This document shows positions 2,251 to 12,160 of a stretch of DNA of 13,189 bases, piece after piece; position 1 is the first letter of the stretch, and every line of letters starts with the position of its first letter. The stretch covers positions 1 through 13,189 of IMG/VR virus record IMGVR_UViG_2548876940_000012; one strand, written 5' to 3'. The position numbers and the translations under genes are program-made. Under the pieces are notes generated by a model, which saw only the letters and a program-made list of their open reading frames with translations, was not told the origin of the DNA and did no database searches. This stretch comes from a virus (Duplodnaviria; Heunggongvirae; Uroviricota; Caudoviricetes).

Positions 2251-2940
2251 CTATCCATGCTTCCTATACGTCTGCGGCATGCTCCCAATAACTTTCCCGA
2301 AGATAAATACCCGGTTCATCTCATCTTTCTCGATCGGGTCCCACGGTGAGTAGCTTTTGTTATCAGAGATAACCAGCAGCTTATCCTTCATCATTTGCAG
2401 GCGCTTTACATGGGCTGTGTCGTCGTACAGAAACGCATAGATACCATCACCGTCGAAAGATTTAACCGTGATATCAACGAATAGAAGATCACCAGGTTCA
2501 ATCGTTCCTGACATGCTGTCACCGCGTACGTTAATGATGCGGATATTTTCTGCCTTCCTACCATCGAACATGTGACGAGCATCGTCAAACGAGTACTCAA
2601 CCGAGCGTAGAACTTCTACAAACTCACGGTTGATGACTCCCGGCCCAGCACTGACTTCTATATCAAGAACGTCAATCTTGAAGTATTTGGAATGGCTGAC
2701 AGTTGATTGTATTGGTTGCACTGTACTGTCTGACATATTTCCAACGCCAGAAGATAACCATTCTGCGCGCACACCCAAAGCGTTCGCGATCTCCACGATT
2801 TTAGTTGTTTGATTAGCTTTCCCTGTTTCGATTTTCTGAATAGCAGCCTGGCTAACCCCGACCAAATCCCCAAGCGCCTTTTGTGTAAGGCCTCGCGCTA
2901 ATCTGGCTTCTTTAAGTCTTTCTGAGAGTGTTGTTTTCAT
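2251..2940 (-). CDS. cI: CI-like prophage repressor: N-terminal HTH (XRE type) plus C-terminal LexA/S24-type autopeptidase domain
   Basis: MKTTLSERLKEARLARGLTQKALGDLVGVSQAAIQKIE is an HTH; the C-terminal region has GDSM...GD-LLFVD and a K, typical of S24 self-cleaving repressors. The start was moved to the internal Met at 2940 so that the operator palindrome lies outside the CDS; the longest ORF runs to 3006. Confidence 0.9.
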   Translation of the reverse strand: MKTTLSERLKEARLARGLTQKALGDLVGVSQAAIQKIETGKANQTTKIVEIANALGVRAEWLSSGVGNMSDSTVQPIQSTVSHSKYFKIDVLDIEVSAGPGVINREFVEVLRSVEYSFDDARHMFDGRKAENIRIINVRGDSMSGTIEPGDLLFVDITVKSFDGDGIYAFLYDDTAHVKRLQMMKDKLLVISDNKSYSPWDPIEKDEMNRVFIFGKVIGSMPQTYRKHG

Positions 2941-2981
2941 AGTCCAAATGTACAACCAAGGTTTTATTCCATCAAACGAAA

Positions 2982-3006
2982 ATGGTTGTTGACTAAAAAC
3001 AACCAT
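2982..3006. promoter_or_regulatory. OR operator: perfect 9-bp inverted repeat ATGGTTGTT-N7-AACAACCAT
   Basis: Read directly: ATGGTTGTT (2982-2990), gactaaa, AACAACCAT (2998-3006), between the divergent cI and cro starts. Weaker related half-sites lie at 2930-2935 and 2952-2958. Confidence 0.65.
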
Positions 3007-3044: not shown

Positions 3045-3275
3045 ATGAACCCAGCTATCAAAACAGCGATCAATATCGTTGGTTCACAAAAGAAACTGGG
3101 CGCTGCTTGCGAAGTTTCACAGCAGGCCGTCTATAAGTGGCTTCACAACAAAGCAAAGGTATCCCCTGAACATGTCGGCAGCATTGTTACGGCTACTGGT
3201 GGAGTAGTGAAGGCATACCAGATTCGCCCGGATCTTCCGAAGTTGTTTCCACACACCGAAAAGAACGCAGCTTAA
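3045..3275 (+). CDS. Cro-like HTH repressor (YdaS family), 76 aa
   Basis: First gene of the rightward operon, divergent from cI, with a GGAGG RBS. The HTH-like segment SQKKLGAACEVSQQAVYKWL matches the Rac-prophage YdaS-type Cro. Confidence 0.8.
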   Translation: MNPAIKTAINIVGSQKKLGAACEVSQQAVYKWLHNKAKVSPEHVGSIVTATGGVVKAYQIRPDLPKLFPHTEKNAA

Positions 3276-3344: not shown

Positions 3345-3884
3345 ATGCAACCACTTACATACCAACAGACTAGCGGATTTAGCCCAACTGCGGTGATAAA
3401 TCGTTCTCAAACAAAACAGGTGCCAGGCCACGAAAAAATCCGTGATGCCGTCCGCGCCTGGTCGGCTGTAGATAATCAGGATGTCGTTGCCACACTCATT
3501 GTGAATGAGTATCGGGAGCAGGGCGGCGGCACCATCGATTTCCCTGATGATGTCAGCCGTGCACGCCAGAAGCTGTTCCGCTTCCTCGATAACAAATTCG
3601 ATTCTGAAAAATACCGAAATAACGTGCGTGAACTGACCCCGGCAATTCTGGCGGTACTACCGCTGGAATATCGCGGTTACCTGGTTGAGCAGGATAGCTT
3701 CATGACTCGGTTGGCTGAAATGGAAAAGGAACTCAGTGAGGCAAAACAGGCTGTCATTCTCAACGCACCACGCCACCAGAAACTGAAGGAAATGAGTGAA
3801 GGTATTGTGTCGATGTTTCGTGTGGACCCAGATCTGGCTGGTCCATTGATGGCGATGGTTACTACCATGCTGGGGGCGATATGA
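3345..3884 (+). CDS. YdaT-family (cII-position) regulatory protein, 179 aa
   Basis: EYREQGGG and LTPAILAVLP motifs match E. coli Rac YdaT as I recall it (EEYLRQGGG ... LIPAILAILP). AAGGAG RBS. It occupies the cII slot after cro. Confidence 0.7.
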   Translation: MQPLTYQQTSGFSPTAVINRSQTKQVPGHEKIRDAVRAWSAVDNQDVVATLIVNEYREQGGGTIDFPDDVSRARQKLFRFLDNKFDSEKYRNNVRELTPAILAVLPLEYRGYLVEQDSFMTRLAEMEKELSEAKQAVILNAPRHQKLKEMSEGIVSMFRVDPDLAGPLMAMVTTMLGAI

Positions 3885-3970
3885 CAGGTTCAGAAATGGC
3901 GAAAGCCGGTCTGCGCGAACAGAACCGACTTTCAGGTGCAAATCGTAACACACTCATTGCGGGAGGAATT

Positions 3971-4900
3971 ATGGCAAACACTGCTGAGATATTCAATTTT
4001 CCAGTGCCGGATGCGGCACAAAAGGAGCCGCGCGTGGCAGATCTCGATGATGGTTATACGCGCATTGCAAATGAGTTGCTGGAAGCTGTGATGCTGGCCG
4101 GATTAACACAGCACCAGCTTCTGGTCTTCCTGGCTGTCATGCGCAAAACATATGGCTTTAATAAAAAACTGGATTGGGTGAGCAACGAGCAACTTTCCGA
4201 GTTGACCGGGATATTGCCGCACAAGTGTTCTGCTGCAAAAAGTGTTCTGGTAAAGCGTGGGATTTTTATTCAGAGCGGGCGGAATATCGGCATTAATAAT
4301 GTGGTCAGTGAATGGTCAACATTACCCGAATCAGGTAAGAAAAATAAAGTTTACCTGAAAGAGGTAAATTTACCTGAATCAGGTAAGAAAAGTTTACCCA
4401 AATCAGGTAAAGGCGTTTACCCGAATCAGGTAAACACAAAAGACAAACTAACAAAAGACAATATAAAACCTTATTCGTCCGAGAATTCTGGCGAATACTC
4501 TGACCAGCCAGAAAACGACCTTCCTGTGGTGAAACCGGATGCTGCGATTCAGAGCGGCAGCAAGTGGGGGACAGCAGAAGACCTGACCGCCGCAGAGTGG
4601 ATGTTTGACATGGTGAAGACCATCGCACCATCAGCCAGAAAACCGAATTTTGCAGGGTGGGCTAACGATATCCGCCTGATGCGTGAACGTGACGGACGTA
4701 ACCACCGCGACATGTGTGTACTGTTCCGCTGGGCATGCCAGGACAACTTCTGGTCCGGTAACGTGCTGAGTCCGGCCAAACTCCGCGACAAGTGGACCCA
4801 GCTCGAAATCAACCGAAACAAGCAACAGGCTGGCGTGACAGCCGGCAAACCAAAACTCGACCTGACGAACACTGACTGGATTTACGGGGTGGAGCTATGA
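3971..4900 (+). CDS. O: Replication initiator O (lambda O family) with ori iterons embedded in the linker; diverged N-terminal domain and lambda-like C-terminal domain
   Basis: Start at MANTAEIFNF with a GGGAGG RBS, aligning with the lambda O start MTNTAKILNF. The C-terminus (...KPKLDLTNTDWIYGVEL) matches lambda O from memory. The ORF can extend to 3881, where an ATGA overlaps the upstream stop. Confidence 0.85.
   Translation: MANTAEIFNFPVPDAAQKEPRVADLDDGYTRIANELLEAVMLAGLTQHQLLVFLAVMRKTYGFNKKLDWVSNEQLSELTGILPHKCSAAKSVLVKRGIFIQSGRNIGINNVVSEWSTLPESGKKNKVYLKEVNLPESGKKSLPKSGKGVYPNQVNTKDKLTKDNIKPYSSENSGEYSDQPENDLPVVKPDAAIQSGSKWGTAEDLTAAEWMFDMVKTIAPSARKPNFAGWANDIRLMRERDGRNHRDMCVLFRWACQDNFWSGNVLSPAKLRDKWTQLEINRNKQQAGVTAGKPKLDLTNTDWIYGVEL
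4322..4470. repeat. Replication origin: five 17-bp iterons (consensus TTACCYGAATCAGGTAA, each an internal inverted repeat) followed by an A-rich stretch
   Basis: Iterons at 4322-4338, 4351-4367, 4370-4386, 4394-4410 and 4417-4433, then acacaaaagacaaactaacaaaagacaatataaaacc. The arrangement matches ori-lambda inside O, but the iteron sequence differs from lambda. Confidence 0.8.
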
Positions 4901-5598
4901 AAAACATCGCCGCACAGATGGTTAACTTTGACCGTGAGCAGATGCGTCGGATCGCCAACAACATGCCGGAACAGTACGACGAAAAGCCGCAGGTACAACA
5001 GGTAGCGCAGATCATCAATGGTGTGTTCAGCCAGTTACTAGCAACTTTCCCGGCGAGCCTGGCTAACCGGGACCAGAACGAACTGAACGAAATCCGCCGC
5101 CAGTGGGTGCTGGCTTTCCGGGAAAACGGGATCACCACAATGGAACAGGTTAACGCAGGAATGCGCGTAGCCCGTCGGCAGAATCGACCATTCCTGCCAT
5201 CACCCGGGCAGTTTGTCGCCTGGTGCCGGGAAGAAGCATCCGTTACCGCCGGGCTGCCAAACGCCAGCGAGCTGGTTGATATGGTTTACGAGTATTGCCG
5301 GAAGCGTGGCCTGTATCCGGACGCAGAGTCTTATCCATGGAAATCAAACGCGCACTACTGGCTGGTTACCAACCTGTACCAGAACATGCGGGCCAATGCG
5401 CTTACTGATGCGGAATTACGGCGCAAGGCTGCCGATGAACTGTCCTGTATGACCGCGCGAATTAACCGTGGTGAGGCGATACCTGAACCAGTAAAACAGC
5501 TTCCTGTCATGGGCGGTAGACCTCTAAATCGTGCACAGGCTCTGGCGAAGATCGCAGAAATCAAAGCTAAGTTTGGGCTGAAAGGAGCAAGTGTATGA
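4897..5598 (+). CDS. P: Replication protein P (DnaB helicase loader), lambda P-like, 233 aa
   Basis: Sequence MKNIAAQMVNFDREQMRRIANNMPEQYDEKPQ... is recognised as near-identical to lambda P (from memory). ATGA overlap with the O stop. Confidence 0.9.
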   Translation: MKNIAAQMVNFDREQMRRIANNMPEQYDEKPQVQQVAQIINGVFSQLLATFPASLANRDQNELNEIRRQWVLAFRENGITTMEQVNAGMRVARRQNRPFLPSPGQFVAWCREEASVTAGLPNASELVDMVYEYCRKRGLYPDAESYPWKSNAHYWLVTNLYQNMRANALTDAELRRKAADELSCMTARINRGEAIPEPVKQLPVMGGRPLNRAQALAKIAEIKAKFGLKGASV

Positions 5599-5768
5599 CG
5601 GGCAAAGAGGCAATTATTTATTACCTGGGGACGCATAAGAGCTTCTGTGCGCAGGACGTTGCTGCGGCAACAGGTGTGACAGTAACCTGCATAAATCAGG
5701 CAGCAGCTAAAATGGCGCGTGCAGGAATCCTGGTCATTGATGGTAAGGTCTGGCGAACGTTTGTTTAA
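5595..5768 (+). CDS. ren: Ren-like protein, C-terminally truncated relative to lambda Ren (57 aa here, ~96 aa in lambda)
   Basis: ATGA overlap with the P stop. MTGKEAIIYYLGTH...INQAAAKMARAGILVIDGKVWRT resembles the lambda Ren N-terminus as recalled. The ORF stops early where the AT-rich moron island begins. Not in the ORF track because it is under 60 aa. Confidence 0.55.
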   Translation: MTGKEAIIYYLGTHKSFCAQDVAAATGVTVTCINQAAAKMARAGILVIDGKVWRTFV

Positions 5769-5914: not shown

Positions 5915-6409
5915 ATGAGAAAATTTATTTTAGCCTTTGTCATAAGTGCCTCGTTTACAGCAAATGCTGGTGTAGAGAAGTTAGGGCCGTGGATAACAAA
6001 GTCTGAGATAAATAAAATGACTGACCAGACTGACTTTGTGGCTCTTAATTTATCACCAGATTCATATAACAAAGCAGGTACTGATCGTGCAACTTCACTG
6101 GTGTTGCGTTGTAGTGATAACAAAACAGATGCCTATTTATCATTCAATGATTATATGGGGTCGGACAACCCAAGAATTACAGTGCGGTTAGATGGCGGAA
6201 AGCCGGTCAAGAGTGTTTGGGGAGGTGGGGAAGGCGGTGATTCTGCATTTGCTCCACAACCAATACAATTTATAAAGACCTTGGCTAAGCATAAAAAAGC
6301 TATTTTTGGGTTTGAACCTTATGGATCAACTATGCAAGTAGTTGAGTTTGACTTGTCTGAGATTGATAAGGTTGTGGAAAAAATTTCACAGTCTTGCAAT
6401 TGGAAATGA
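5915..6409 (+). CDS. Secreted/periplasmic hypothetical protein with Sec signal peptide (moron)
   Basis: N-terminal MRKFILAFVISASFTANA with an A-N-A cleavage motif. AAGGAGA RBS. Two Cys residues (C66, C161). AT-rich. Followed by an intrinsic terminator. Confidence 0.7.
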   Translation: MRKFILAFVISASFTANAGVEKLGPWITKSEINKMTDQTDFVALNLSPDSYNKAGTDRATSLVLRCSDNKTDAYLSFNDYMGSDNPRITVRLDGGKPVKSVWGGGEGGDSAFAPQPIQFIKTLAKHKKAIFGFEPYGSTMQVVEFDLSEIDKVVEKISQSCNWK

Positions 6410-6426
6410 CAAAAAAATTTCATATG

Positions 6427-6454
6427 AACCCAGTTGGCGCTGGGTTTTTTATTT
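6427..6454 (+). terminator. Rho-independent terminator after the secreted-protein gene
   Basis: Stem AACCCAG / CTGGGTT (6427-6433 and 6440-6446), loop TTGGCG, then a T-run TTTTTTATTT. Confidence 0.65.
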
Positions 6455-6873
6455 CAGTAGCCAATAATGCATTCAAAATCTCTTACTTGAGAAACGGCCT
6501 ATTTGAGATTTCAGTCGTGGCAGGATGATCAGTTGATTCGAGTATTGACGCATTTACGTTCTGAACGGCTGTAATAAAGTTGCGGGAGAGAAATGCCGCT
6601 AGTATTTTGTAATTAATTGAATGCTGAAGGTTTAATGAGAAGTCAAGAACACTACTTGTACTATAATCGTTCGATGTTAGTGAGGGTTTGATGCAAAAAA
6701 TGAAGTGATTGACCCTAAATTTGCGCGATCAGCGACAGATTGTACACCGAGATCCTGTGGGCTGGAATTTGCAGAGAAATACCGAAAATGATATCCAATA
6801 TTGTTTTCAGTTCCTACATCATACCTGATAAGGGTATAATCATAAAAATTAGGATAATTCAAGTTATAATTGT

Positions 6874-7290
6874 ATGAATAAAAACGACCTTGAAGCATTA
6901 TCTGACACTAGGCTTAATGAGGCCAAATGCTTGCTTGATCATGGCTTTTTTCATGGTGCATATTATCTTTGTGGGTATGCAGTTGAATGTGCATTGAAGG
7001 CCTGTATTGCCAAGTCATTTTTACAACATGAGTTTCCAAACAAAAAAGTCGTAAATGATTCATATACTCATGATTTGTCGCAACTTCTCAAAATTGCCAA
7101 CTTACATCAAATTTTGATTGCTGACGCAAAAAATGATGTTTCGTTGGAGATTAACTGGTCGGTCGTTAAAGACTGGAGCGAGCAATTTAGATACGACAAT
7201 AACATAAGTAAAGCTATGGCCGAACAATTGTTTGATGCTGTAGGTGACCAAAATTCTGGAGTTTTGAAATGGGTAAAAGCACACTGGTAA
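6874..7290 (+). CDS. HEPN-domain protein (classical HEPN type), 138 aa; putative RNase toxin/effector
   Basis: Helix motif GAYYLCGYAVECALKA (E-x2-LKA), H-D-L motif (SYTHDLSQLL) and a later R-Y (EQFRYDN), as in classical HEPN/HepT-type domains. A GGAG for the downstream gene lies inside its 3' end. Confidence 0.65.
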   Translation: MNKNDLEALSDTRLNEAKCLLDHGFFHGAYYLCGYAVECALKACIAKSFLQHEFPNKKVVNDSYTHDLSQLLKIANLHQILIADAKNDVSLEINWSVVKDWSEQFRYDNNISKAMAEQLFDAVGDQNSGVLKWVKAHW

Positions 7291-7670
7291 TCGGCAGAGA
7301 GTTGACAAAAGATATGGAATTCTCAGGTCAATTTTTATTAAAAAAACTCAAGTTACAGAATTTAACTATTGATGCTGCAATGTGGTTTTATTACCCAGAT
7401 CTATCTTGGAGATATATTTTAGTTATCAGTGACTTCTCAGAACGTGGACCGGCAGAAATATATAGAAAAATCAGTGAGATAAATAGAAATAGCATATCAA
7501 AAAAGTATAAGCCGATACCATTAGAAGCAATTGAGGCTAAGGGGGATTCAGCTTTTATTTATAAAATGTTAAAAGGATTTGCTAGAGTCAACGATGGTAA
7601 AGTTCGCGTTTCTAATTCTATGGTAAATGGTTTAGAAATCGTTGACTGTCTGATCTATGAGTTAAAATAA
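7269..7670 (+). CDS. Hypothetical protein, 133 aa; overlapping partner of the HEPN gene; no nucleotidyltransferase (MNT) motif detected
   Basis: Overlaps the HEPN ORF by 22 bp, with a GGAG 8 nt upstream of its ATG. Lacks the G-S...D-x-D/E Pol-beta signature. AT-rich. Confidence 0.55.
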   Translation: MGKSTLVIGRELTKDMEFSGQFLLKKLKLQNLTIDAAMWFYYPDLSWRYILVISDFSERGPAEIYRKISEINRNSISKKYKPIPLEAIEAKGDSAFIYKMLKGFARVNDGKVRVSNSMVNGLEIVDCLIYELK

Positions 7671-7741
7671 GAAATCTCTTGCTGGGTATCATTATTGTTT
7701 AAATGACTTTTGATTTTCAATAATCAACTTGTCATAATTAA

Positions 7742-7770
7742 GTCACCGGAGTTTGAACTCCTCCGGTGAC
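7742..7770. other. Stable GC-rich hairpin (GTCACCGGAG ... CTCCGGTGAC) between the moron island and the nin genes; no clear T-tract
   Basis: 10-bp perfect inverted repeat with a 9-nt loop, read directly. Possible terminator or processing site at the module boundary. Confidence 0.4.
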
Positions 7771-7891
7771 TTCTGCGCTAAACGGGGACGTTTATGCGCA
7801 CATACAATCCAAACTCTCTTCTCCCTTCACAGATGCAGAAATGTACCTGCGATTTTTTGCATCCAGCGTTTGACCTCTGCGGAGGTGAATC

Positions 7892-8347
7892 GTGAACCTC
7901 CTACAAGATGGCATCAAATTGCATCGTGGTAACTTCACCGCTATCGGCCAGCAGATCCAGCCTTATCTGGAGGACGGCAAATGCTTTCGCATGGTGCTTA
8001 AACCGTGGCGCGAGAGACGCAGTCTTTCCCAGAATGCACTCAGCCACATGTGGTACAGCGAAATCAGTGAATACCTCATCAGCAAGGGTAAAACGTTCGC
8101 CACTCCAGCTTGGGTAAAAGATGCTCTCAAACACACATATCTCGGTTATGAAACCAAAGAGCTGGTTGATGTCGTAACCGGTGATATCACCACTATCCAG
8201 TCGTTACGCCATACCTCCGATCTTGATACCGGAGAGATGTATGTCTTCCTGTGTAAGGTTGAAGCCTGGGCGATGAATATTGGTTGCCATCTGACTATTC
8301 CGCAGAGCTGCGAGTTCCAGCTGCTGCGCGACAAGCAGGAGGCGTAA
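7892..8347 (+). CDS. ybcN: NinB/YbcN-family protein (DLP12 YbcN-like), 151 aa
   Basis: GTG start with a GGAGG RBS. The [11 protein letters not shown] motif resembles the NinB SLDQN motif. It sits at the head of the ninE-ybcO-rusA-ylcG cluster, as in DLP12. Confidence 0.75.
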
Positions 8348-9159: not shown

Positions 9160-9296
9160 TGTTTGAGTCTTATATGGCAGAACGTCTTCGCCACCGCTGG
9201 ATGCGCCTGCGCTTATATCGTTTCCCCGGTTCTGTTTTGACCGATTACCGGATACTGAAGAATTACACCAAAACACTGAAAGGAGCTGCCGCATGA
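9156..9296 (+). CDS. ylcG: YlcG-like small protein, 46 aa
   Basis: Translated by hand: [46 protein letters not shown]. Overlaps the rusA stop and the downstream ATG (ATGA). Same position as ylcG in DLP12. Confidence 0.6.
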
Positions 9297-9982
9297 ATAC
9301 CCAATATTTACAGTATGTCCGCGAGCAACTCATTGTGGCTACTGCTGATTTGAGCGGAGCAACTAAAGGCCAGCTTGAAGCTTGGCTGGAGCATGCACAA
9401 TTTGATACTGGTACATATAAACGAAAGAAGCCGCGCATTCTGGATGAGGTAACGGGCAAGATGATTACGCTGGATAATCCGCCGATTTCCGGTAAGCAGT
9501 CGTACGCAAAAGGTTCATCCATTGCACTGGTCAGCCAGGTTGAGTTCTCAACCTCGTCATGGCGCCGCGCGGTTCTGTCTCTCGATGAACATCAGAAAGC
9601 GTGGTTGCTGTGGAGTTACAGCGAAAGTGTTCGCTGGGAGCATCAGGTCACCATAACGCAGTGGGTATGGAGCGAGTTTAAGACTCTGTTGGGTACCAGG
9701 AAAATTGCAGGTAAGACACTGGAACGTTTGAAGAAGTTGATCTGGCTGGCGGCACAGGATGTGAAGAACGAGCTGGCAGGGCGTAAGACCTATGAATACC
9801 AGGAGCTGGCATCACTGGTGGGAGTGACATCAAAAAACTGGTCTGAGACATTTACTGAACGCTGGGTTGCAATGAAGCACATTTTTCTACAGCTTGATAG
9901 CCAAGCTTTATTGCTTTTAACGAAAACACGTTCAAAACAAAAGGCCACATTTTCACAGCAAGATATTGCAAAACTGGATTAA
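9293..9982 (+). CDS. Putative late-gene antiterminator (Q-like), 229 aa
   Basis: The call is positional: last gene before a ~300-bp noncoding region with an intrinsic terminator, followed by the lysis cassette. No Zn-finger Cys pattern as in lambda Q, so the family is unassigned. Confidence 0.5.
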   Translation: MNTQYLQYVREQLIVATADLSGATKGQLEAWLEHAQFDTGTYKRKKPRILDEVTGKMITLDNPPISGKQSYAKGSSIALVSQVEFSTSSWRRAVLSLDEHQKAWLLWSYSESVRWEHQVTITQWVWSEFKTLLGTRKIAGKTLERLKKLIWLAAQDVKNELAGRKTYEYQELASLVGVTSKNWSETFTERWVAMKHIFLQLDSQALLLLTKTRSKQKATFSQQDIAKLD

Positions 9983-11650: not shown

Positions 11651-12160
11651 ATGGAAAGGTTTATAAAATCAATTGAATCTTCAATTGAAAGTGAGAATTG
11701 GTTAGCGGCATTGTTTATGGCTCTTGCTATGCCTGATATTTGCAGGAGCGTTGAACGTCCCAAAATAGGTAAGGGTGAAACAGGGAAATGGTATAAAGAT
11801 TGGGTTTCTCGTTATCTTGAAAATAAATATACATCCGGTACACATGAACAGTGTCGATTTTATGCGGATGATTTTTGGCTGTATCGTTGTTCTTGTTTAC
11901 ATGCTGGACAGGATCCAGAGAACAGGAAAAGAATGATGCAGTTTAATTTTACACCACCACCTAGGCCAAATTGCCAAGTGCATTTAAATCACTTAAATGG
12001 CAAACTTCAGTTGCAAATAGATGTGTTTTGTCGAGATATGATTGAGGCAGTCAATCAATGGCGTACTGAGGTCGAGGATACGCCAGAAATTAAGGCTCGT
12101 ATGGATTCTCTGATAAATATATCATTAGCATCTTTTGGAACATTCATTGTACTTGGTTAA
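11651..12160 (+). CDS. Hypothetical moron protein, 169 aa, with an Rx4H motif (YRCSCLH); possible HEPN-like effector
   Basis: AT-rich island between the lysis genes and the HNH/terminase genes. R-x4-H (R-CSCL-H) resembles the HEPN catalytic motif. Bounded by a -10 hexamer upstream and an inverted repeat downstream. Confidence 0.6.
   Translation: MERFIKSIESSIESENWLAALFMALAMPDICRSVERPKIGKGETGKWYKDWVSRYLENKYTSGTHEQCRFYADDFWLYRCSCLHAGQDPENRKRMMQFNFTPPPRPNCQVHLNHLNGKLQLQIDVFCRDMIEAVNQWRTEVEDTPEIKARMDSLINISLASFGTFIVLG

Follow-up and report, generated by a model that had tools for sequence, protein, structure and literature searches.

The window analysed here is a 13,189-nt stretch of viral DNA (IMG/VR record IMGVR_UViG_2548876940_000012), and this report concerns two small overlapping genes within it, the first encoding a HEPN-domain protein and the second a partner protein of an undescribed family. 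The two genes are obligately linked and move as a unit between phyla, chromosomes and prophages. Because the pair was found in at least 14 bacterial phyla, it is probably an uncharacterised toxin–antitoxin or phage-defence module. The pair and the cassette that carries it are located as follows.

6488..7705, plus strand: HEPN–partner cassette (moron), AT-rich, about 1.2 kb, from the terminator of the TagO-like gene to the lambdoid DNA preceding ybcN
6874-7290, plus strand: HEPN gene, 138 amino acids (aa)
7269-7670, plus strand: partner gene, 133 aa

HEPN nucleases are recurrent effectors in bacterial immunity and toxin–antitoxin biology, with Cas13, Csm6, HepT, RnlA, HepS and Tha as examples. 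The present analysis marks out a HEPN family that is large, spread widely over the bacteria and strictly organised in two-gene units. As far as can be told, its partner family and its conserved nested-start architecture are undescribed, and its HEPN side is of a known class.

Linkage and spread of the two-gene unit

Loci were fetched with the HEPN alignment alone, which gave 80 contigs from one genome per species (among at least 582 matches) and 41 IMG/VR viral contigs. A hidden Markov model of the partner placed it directly downstream and on the same strand in 80/80 genomic and 41/41 viral loci (121/121 in total), including a locus whose HEPN homologue has just 27% identity to the query. A sequence-only reading of the same DNA had proposed a co-occurrence analysis of homologues and had pointed out that the gene order, HEPN first, is the reverse of that in modules pairing a minimal nucleotidyltransferase (MNT) with HEPN; the partner adjoins the HEPN gene, and the order holds, in every one of these loci. 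The distance matrices of the two proteins were correlated (r = 0.66, Mantel p = 0.001). Mean pairwise identity was 0.49 for the HEPN protein versus 0.33 for the partner, as expected for an effector and its regulator.

The HEPN family is held by at least 582 species representatives from at least 14 phyla, namely Proteobacteria, Bacteroidota, Acidobacteriota, Chloroflexota, Desulfobacterota, Planctomycetota, Verrucomicrobiota, Chlorobiota, Nitrospirota, Spirochaetota and others. The pair was found in 190 of 5426 complete E. coli genomes (about 3.5%), as a single chromosomal copy of at least 99% identity, and the carriers include O157:H7, O26:H11 and O111 strains. Klebsiella pneumoniae prophages carry a copy with 75% protein identity in the nin region before NinG and Q, with different neighbours. 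The Acinetobacter copy lies at a prophage end beside umuDC, in one case with AbiH, and one further copy was found in reverse orientation within an unrelated prophage. Among 50,697 records of deposited phages, Klebsiella phage Kp4864-1 was the only carrier.

Copies in environmental bacteria are mostly solitary insertions among housekeeping genes (prfB-lysS, panC, dapA, prmA, Pup ligase). PIN, HicB or Fic modules lie near some copies, insertion sequence (IS) elements occur among the flanks, and a Septu system directly adjoins one copy. When 20 flanking open reading frames (ORFs) from 12 environmental genomes were classified, 17 were mostly housekeeping, 1 was an IS66 transposase and 2 had no Pfam match; outside the Septu and AbiH cases, the neighbours thus give little reason to link the pair with defence islands. 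The solitary-insertion pattern fits selfish toxin–antitoxin modules better than dedicated defence-island genes. Two decayed copies have lost the HEPN gene and kept the partner, one of them in Chlorobiaceae with a premature stop in the HEPN gene, and these weakly favour a toxic HEPN protein.

The two proteins and the nested start of the second gene

The HEPN ORF matched Pfam PF05168 over residues 12-118 (27.8 bits versus a gathering score of 22, E 3e-6), and the same hit is precomputed for most of its homologues. An AlphaFold2 model built from 35 homologues (pLDDT 93) showed a four-helix up-and-down bundle with an insert between helices 2 and 3. Residues invariant across homologues of many phyla include R13, E38, K42, H66, N94, R106 and Y107. 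The HEPN hallmarks that had been read from the letters of this ORF are thus borne out, both by the family match and by the invariance of E38, K42, H66, R106 and Y107.

The Rx4-6H motif at the end of helix 3 was absent, as no His follows R106 at a distance of 4-6 residues and the columns there are variable. R106 itself lies at the end of helix 3, in the place of the motif Arg, and the invariant H66 comes from the helix 2-3 insert instead. An alternative ribonuclease (RNase) active site was proposed for AbiV and the AF0298-like HEPN-T variant by Anantharaman et al. (PMC3710099). Because this insert-His form is a recognised family variant, the missing motif is no ground for exclusion from HEPN-T. 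On sequence and modelled fold the ORF is assigned to the HEPN-T/PF05168 class as an AF0298-like variant, and its product is predicted to be an RNase effector with R106 and H66 as candidate catalytic residues, together with E38 and K42. The HEPN family profile found no sequence relative in the PDB, NCBIfam gave no match for either ORF of the pair, and the PHROG matches of both were limited to families of unknown function.

The partner profile, searched against 1.84 billion cluster representatives, retrieved 773 at E <= 1e-3, nearly all of them single-domain proteins of 120-150 aa. A word-indexed search had given 32 clusters from Enterobacteriaceae and Acinetobacter, and the view of the partner as a narrow enterobacterial orphan was overturned by the 773 profile matches and also by the genes found around distant HEPN homologues. 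Of 39 diverse members, none matched a Pfam family, the partner matched no PADLOC profile at E <= 1, and its profile had no sequence match in the PDB. Models for helix-turn-helix, ribbon-helix-helix and AbrB domains likewise gave no match. A DNA-binding autoregulatory antitoxin domain is not universal among toxin–antitoxin systems.

The AlphaFold2 model of the partner (pLDDT 92.9) showed an alpha-beta-beta-alpha-alpha-beta core, a short helix and a conserved C-terminal beta-hairpin. A Foldseek search of this model against the PDB gave no significant match, the best weak hits being BolA- and uS3-like folds. The structural check that had been suggested for the partner thus revealed neither a recognisable MNT nor another known family. 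G20, W39, W47, G60 and Y130 are invariant across the family and R113, N120 and D126 nearly so; most of the invariant residues appear to be structural, with no catalytic-looking constellation. The partner is predicted to be the cognate inhibitor or regulator of the HEPN protein.

Whether the partner could be an MNT was addressed with a profile built from a genuine PF18765/PF01909 protein in one fetched locus. The hhalign comparison of the partner profile with this MNT profile returned a probability of 0.05%, and none of the 39 partner members matched Pfam NTP_transf_2 or Polbeta. The GS and DxD positions were not conserved in the partner alignment, and the predicted order of elements (strand-hairpin-strand) has no counterpart of the GS-bearing helix of the nucleotidyltransferase fold. 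On these results the partner is not classed as a minimal nucleotidyltransferase, although it may conceivably derive from one very remotely, and the earlier remark that the MNT signature is missing is upheld. Since the partner is not a nucleotidyltransferase, neutralisation by AMPylation is not expected.

The signals around the two starts are listed below.

6811..6840, plus strand: putative sigma-70 promoter of the cassette (-35 TTCCTA at 6811-6816, 18-nt spacer, perfect -10 TATAAT at 6835-6840)
6841..6873, plus strand: leader of 33 nt; the HEPN start has no Shine-Dalgarno sequence within 5-12 nt
7258..7261, plus strand: partner Shine-Dalgarno sequence GGAG, within the HEPN coding sequence, 7 nt 5' of the ATG at 7269
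7269..7290, plus strand: HEPN/partner overlap of 22 nt

Enterobacterial and IMG/VR copies carry TTACAA, an 18-nt spacer and TATAAT, located 37-41 nt 5' of the ATG; these copies differ further upstream yet share about 75 nt preceding the HEPN start, and their leader, too, has no Shine-Dalgarno sequence. We infer that 6811-6840 is the cassette's own promoter, by which expression of the cassette in a lysogen would be possible. A generic promoter scan passed over this site because its -35 element fits 3/6 positions. In related enterobacterial cassettes (four IMG/VR copies), the stretch about 25 nt before the HEPN start has a weak palindrome with 7-nt arms (ATAATTC-N6-GAATTAT) that abuts the start codon, and the copy in the window (6853-6873) is degenerate (ATAATTC...TAATTGT). 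This leader palindrome may act as an operator, or it may fold into a weak hairpin in the RNA at the start codon. A search for operator-like inverted repeats upstream found none at the chosen thresholds.

The partner start codon is composed of A7269, the last base of the Lys132 codon, and T7270-G7271 of the codon for the conserved HEPN Trp133. A partner ATG at the exact 22-nt overlap was found in 62 of 85 loci, about 9 further loci have GTG or TTG at that position, and 8 have a 7-nt overlap in which the start is nested in the terminal HEPN Trp codon (W138), start codons in distant loci having been assigned heuristically. In both overlap types the start codon consists of the base 5' of a conserved Trp codon and the first two bases of that codon (W133 for 22 nt, W138 for 7 nt). 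The overlap of 22 bp and the partner's own GGAG, from which translational coupling had been suggested, are confirmed in the window, and the overlap recurs across the family.

Proposed toxin–antitoxin or abortive-infection function and its rivals

The favoured interpretation is that the pair is a self-contained, horizontally mobile HEPN module of the toxin–antitoxin or abortive-infection kind, in which the partner would be a non-enzymatic inhibitor or sensor, and we give it a probability of about 0.5. It agrees with the original proposal of a toxin–antitoxin or abortive-infection pair with a non-canonical second component, which draws support from the obligate linkage, the nested start, the co-divergence and the mobility of the two genes. 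Two general features of type II-like systems were found, namely two small co-oriented overlapping genes that are inherited together and a patchy, mobile distribution with unrelated neighbours. The invariant residues of the HEPN protein are polar and catalytic-looking versus the mostly structural ones of the partner, which was also counted in favour.

Under this interpretation, the HEPN protein would form a dimer with metal-independent RNase activity, and its cleavage of cellular RNA (tRNA, mRNA or rRNA) would stop growth. The partner would be translated by coupling, from a better ribosome-binding site than that of the HEPN gene, and would bind and silence the HEPN protein directly in a type II manner, not by AMPylation as in type VII HEPN-MNT systems. 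Should the partner be lost or titrated, for instance when a phage infects, transcription is shut off or the element disappears, the nuclease would be freed, leading to abortive infection and/or addiction. With its own promoter, the cassette would be expressed in the lysogen, where it could make the prophage more stable and/or cause infections by other phages to abort.

Several observations weigh against this interpretation. The canonical Rx4-6H motif is absent, and activity through an alternative His is a published proposal (PMC3710099). Many type II antitoxins have a DNA-binding domain, whereas none was recognised in the partner, and the charges of the two proteins show no consistent acid/base pairing. 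Most chromosomal copies lie outside defence islands. Prophage HEPN defences such as HepS act without an antitoxin (PMC13043305). Finally, in one Planctomycetota metagenome-assembled genome, where an assembly error is possible, the HEPN gene is intact and the partner is cut to 88 aa, which is unexpected for a lethal toxin.

The main rival is a sensor-effector defence in which the HEPN protein would be inert by default, like HepS and Tha, and the partner would sense a phage protein or nucleic acid and switch the nuclease on; on this view, losing the partner would abolish defence without being lethal. The copy with a truncated partner, the lack of a DNA-binding domain in the partner, and the presence of the pair on prophages and beside Septu or AbiH in some loci are in its favour. 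However, the insertion of most chromosomal copies singly among housekeeping genes is typical of addiction modules, and the two decayed copies without HEPN but with the partner are expected if HEPN is harmful. The nested start, through which the making of the partner depends on HEPN translation, is also most easily reconciled with neutralisation. We consider this rival fairly unlikely. At the same low probability, the partner may represent a new fold family without a confident PDB relative and form, with an alternative-active-site HEPN-T nuclease, an unnamed two-component system of at least 14 phyla and of temperate phages, among them prophages of O157, O26 and O111 Shiga-toxin-producing E. coli. 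The partner, whose core topology is KH type II/BolA-like, would then be no passive antitoxin but the subunit that senses or targets RNA for the nuclease, directing or gating HEPN cleavage upon infection.

It is rather unlikely that the partner is a degenerate, catalytically dead MNT descendant, the module having been rearranged from type VII HEPN-MNT to stoichiometric neutralisation. This origin conflicts with the hhalign probability of 0.05% and the 0/39 members matching NTP_transf_2 or Polbeta, with the absence of a significant PDB fold match (BolA and uS3-like folds being the weak best hits), and with the lack of GS...DxD, the missing helix between the first two strands and the reversed gene order.

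A reversal of roles, in which HEPN would be a non-catalytic antitoxin or RNA-binding regulator and the partner the toxin, appears improbable. Type II operons most often have the antitoxin gene first, the HEPN protein here is without the canonical catalytic His, and non-catalytic HEPN domains exist, for example MtlR (PMC3710099). But conservation is higher in the HEPN protein than in the partner (0.49 vs 0.33), and the invariant polar residues of the former fit the proposed alternative active site, whereas the partner invariants are Gly, Trp and Tyr. Toxin-first HEPN operons are also known, such as rnlAB (PMC8266594), and the decayed copies lack HEPN and retain the partner.

Very improbable is a phage life-cycle or housekeeping RNA-processing function outside genetic conflict that sits in the nin region by chance: the delayed-early operon position among nin genes and the many chromosomal copies beside housekeeping genes would suit it, but the pair occurs in just 190/5426 E. 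coli genomes and 1/50,697 phage records, the same slot takes other cargo, the distribution over at least 14 phyla is patchy with unrelated neighbours, and the cassette is AT-rich relative to its host phage.

If the pair proves toxic and neutralising as in the favoured toxin–antitoxin or abortive-infection interpretation, the partner would be a new antitoxin or regulator fold, and the HEPN protein would be a test case for the proposed alternative active site of Arg and insert His, a prediction that dates back to 2013. As the cassette resides in prophages of Shiga-toxin-producing E. coli, Klebsiella and Acinetobacter, it could affect prophage stability and superinfection. It is directly clonable because it spans 1.2 kb and has an apparent promoter of its own.

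Genomic setting and comparison with known systems

The window is a lambdoid prophage stretch that covers the early-right and lysis regions, as judged from ORFs and family matches. The genes around the pair are as follows.

2251-3006, minus strand: cI-like repressor
3045-3275: cro
3345-3884: YdaT-domain gene in the cII position
3881-4900: O
4897-5598: P
5595-5768: truncated ren
5915-6409: TagO/VasI-like lipoprotein gene
Downstream of the pair, in this order: ybcN, ybcO, rusA and ylcG
9293-9982: Q
3' of Q: holin, lysozyme, Rz and HNH endonuclease

The AT-richness ascribed to the island by the sequence-only reading is evident, as GC content is 0.34-0.36 across the pair versus about 0.50 in the flanking phage genes. 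Ordinary lambdoid phage homology stops at about 5839. With phage IdasGreatGrand, homology takes in the TagO-like gene and the intrinsic terminator belonging to it (6426-6447) and ends at about 6487, and homology to many lambdoid phages restarts at about 7706. The cassette borders were set at approximately 6488-7705 because the IdasGreatGrand homology ends and the lambdoid homology resumes at these points. In the same slot, IdasGreatGrand (PP925829.1 22787-25213) carries a Bro-N/P22AR_C (P22 antirepressor C-terminal) protein and two proteins without a family match; the site is therefore a variable cargo position in lambdoid nin regions. The stretch 6600-7900 is 99.5% identical to one in E. coli STEC409, where the two genes are annotated as 'HEPN domain-containing protein' followed by 'hypothetical protein'.

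Other features of the window were noted. The segment 5840-6487 is a separate moron, with the TagO/VasI-like gene (5915-6409), whose product has a signal-peptide-like N-terminus, and the strong intrinsic terminator at 6426-6447. The protein scores barely above threshold for Pfam VasI and belongs to PHROG 1848, and this moron is common to IdasGreatGrand, which is without the HEPN pair. The product of the gene in the cII position (3345-3884) has a YdaT_toxin domain (Pfam E 4e-30), a trait of Rac-type prophages too. The truncated ren downstream of P encodes 57 aa and is a pseudogene per RefSeq in the near-identical STEC409 prophage. Between the cassette and ybcN, within conserved lambdoid DNA, positions 7740-7772 hold a perfect 12-bp inverted repeat (AAGTCACCGGAG, 9 nt, CTCCGGTGACTT) without a T-run; in the phage 82 record X92588, the homologous DNA bears annotations of a 'possible regulator-binding site' and of promoter signals. 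Rfam and ARAGORN gave no regulatory RNA or tRNA matches in the window.

Two further AT-rich loci were observed. At 754-2182 on the minus strand, directly downstream of the cI-like repressor in the position of lambda rexAB, two overlapping genes match the PADLOC candidate PDC-M11: a 357-aa protein matches PDC-M11A (E 2e-133), and a 125-aa ASCH-domain protein (Pfam ASCH E 2.5e-8) matches PDC-M11B (E 7e-52). On these matches the two genes may be a second candidate defence cassette of the prophage. At 11651-12160, between the Rz-region genes and the HNH endonuclease, a 169-aa ORF (GC about 0.36) has PHROG 18591, of unknown function, as its sole match, with none in Pfam, NCBIfam or PADLOC, and looks like another moron.

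The pair was compared with described systems. Neither ORF matched AbiV, RnlA/B or other named HEPN defences at E <= 1 with the Pfam and PADLOC models. The HEPN protein matched the 138-position PADLOC model PDC-M28A weakly (E 1.8e-7, 29.7 bits; distant relatives reach 1e-9 and 30-37 bits), and the partner gave no match to PDC-M28B, either here or in three distant pairs (E <= 1, provided that the B model is in the library). The pair is therefore related to PDC-M28 at the HEPN level only, and the PADLOC, NCBIfam and PHROGs results gave no ground for placing it in a named or candidate defence system. Literature searches with the RefSeq accessions, PDC-M28 and lambdoid nin-region defence gave no matches, most subscription-journal papers lying outside the search. 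The papers retrieved on NetFlax and on O157 prophage toxin–antitoxin systems do not describe the pair, and neither the accessions nor three peptides of the two proteins occur in the searched portions of the DefensePredictor supplements, which focus on E. coli.

Among classical HEPN-T proteins (PF05168, UPF0332), AF0298, TT1696 and ST0689 have only 17-19% identity to the HEPN protein. AF0298-type proteins are standalone or MNT-linked, whereas the subfamily described here is strictly linked to a different downstream partner. The difference from HEPN-MNT (HepT-MntA, type VII) concerns both components. The partner there is an MNT (GS...DxD; PF01909/PF18765), which the present partner is not, and the MNT gene is canonically upstream (PMC3710099), whereas HEPN is upstream in 121/121 loci here. 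HEPN-MNT toxins are of the DUF86 class with Rx4HxY, in which the Tyr is AMPylated; the present protein is PF05168/AF0298-like with R106...H66, and its R106-Y107 lacks the His, although Y107 is invariant.

RnlA-RnlB and LsoA-LsoB resemble the pair in having the HEPN toxin upstream and a small antitoxin downstream, with an anti-phage function (PMC8266594). RnlA differs in being a large multidomain protein, and RnlB was not among the structural matches of the partner. HepS acts solo, with a canonical Rx4-6H and no partner; HepS and Tha were compared with the pair on their published descriptions. In HepS (Gifsy-1) and Tha (S. aureus), as here, a HEPN nuclease is accessory cargo of a temperate siphovirus. 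HepS also shares with the pair its place in a lambdoid prophage, with replication genes on one side and late regulators on the other, a region in which accessory genes cluster.
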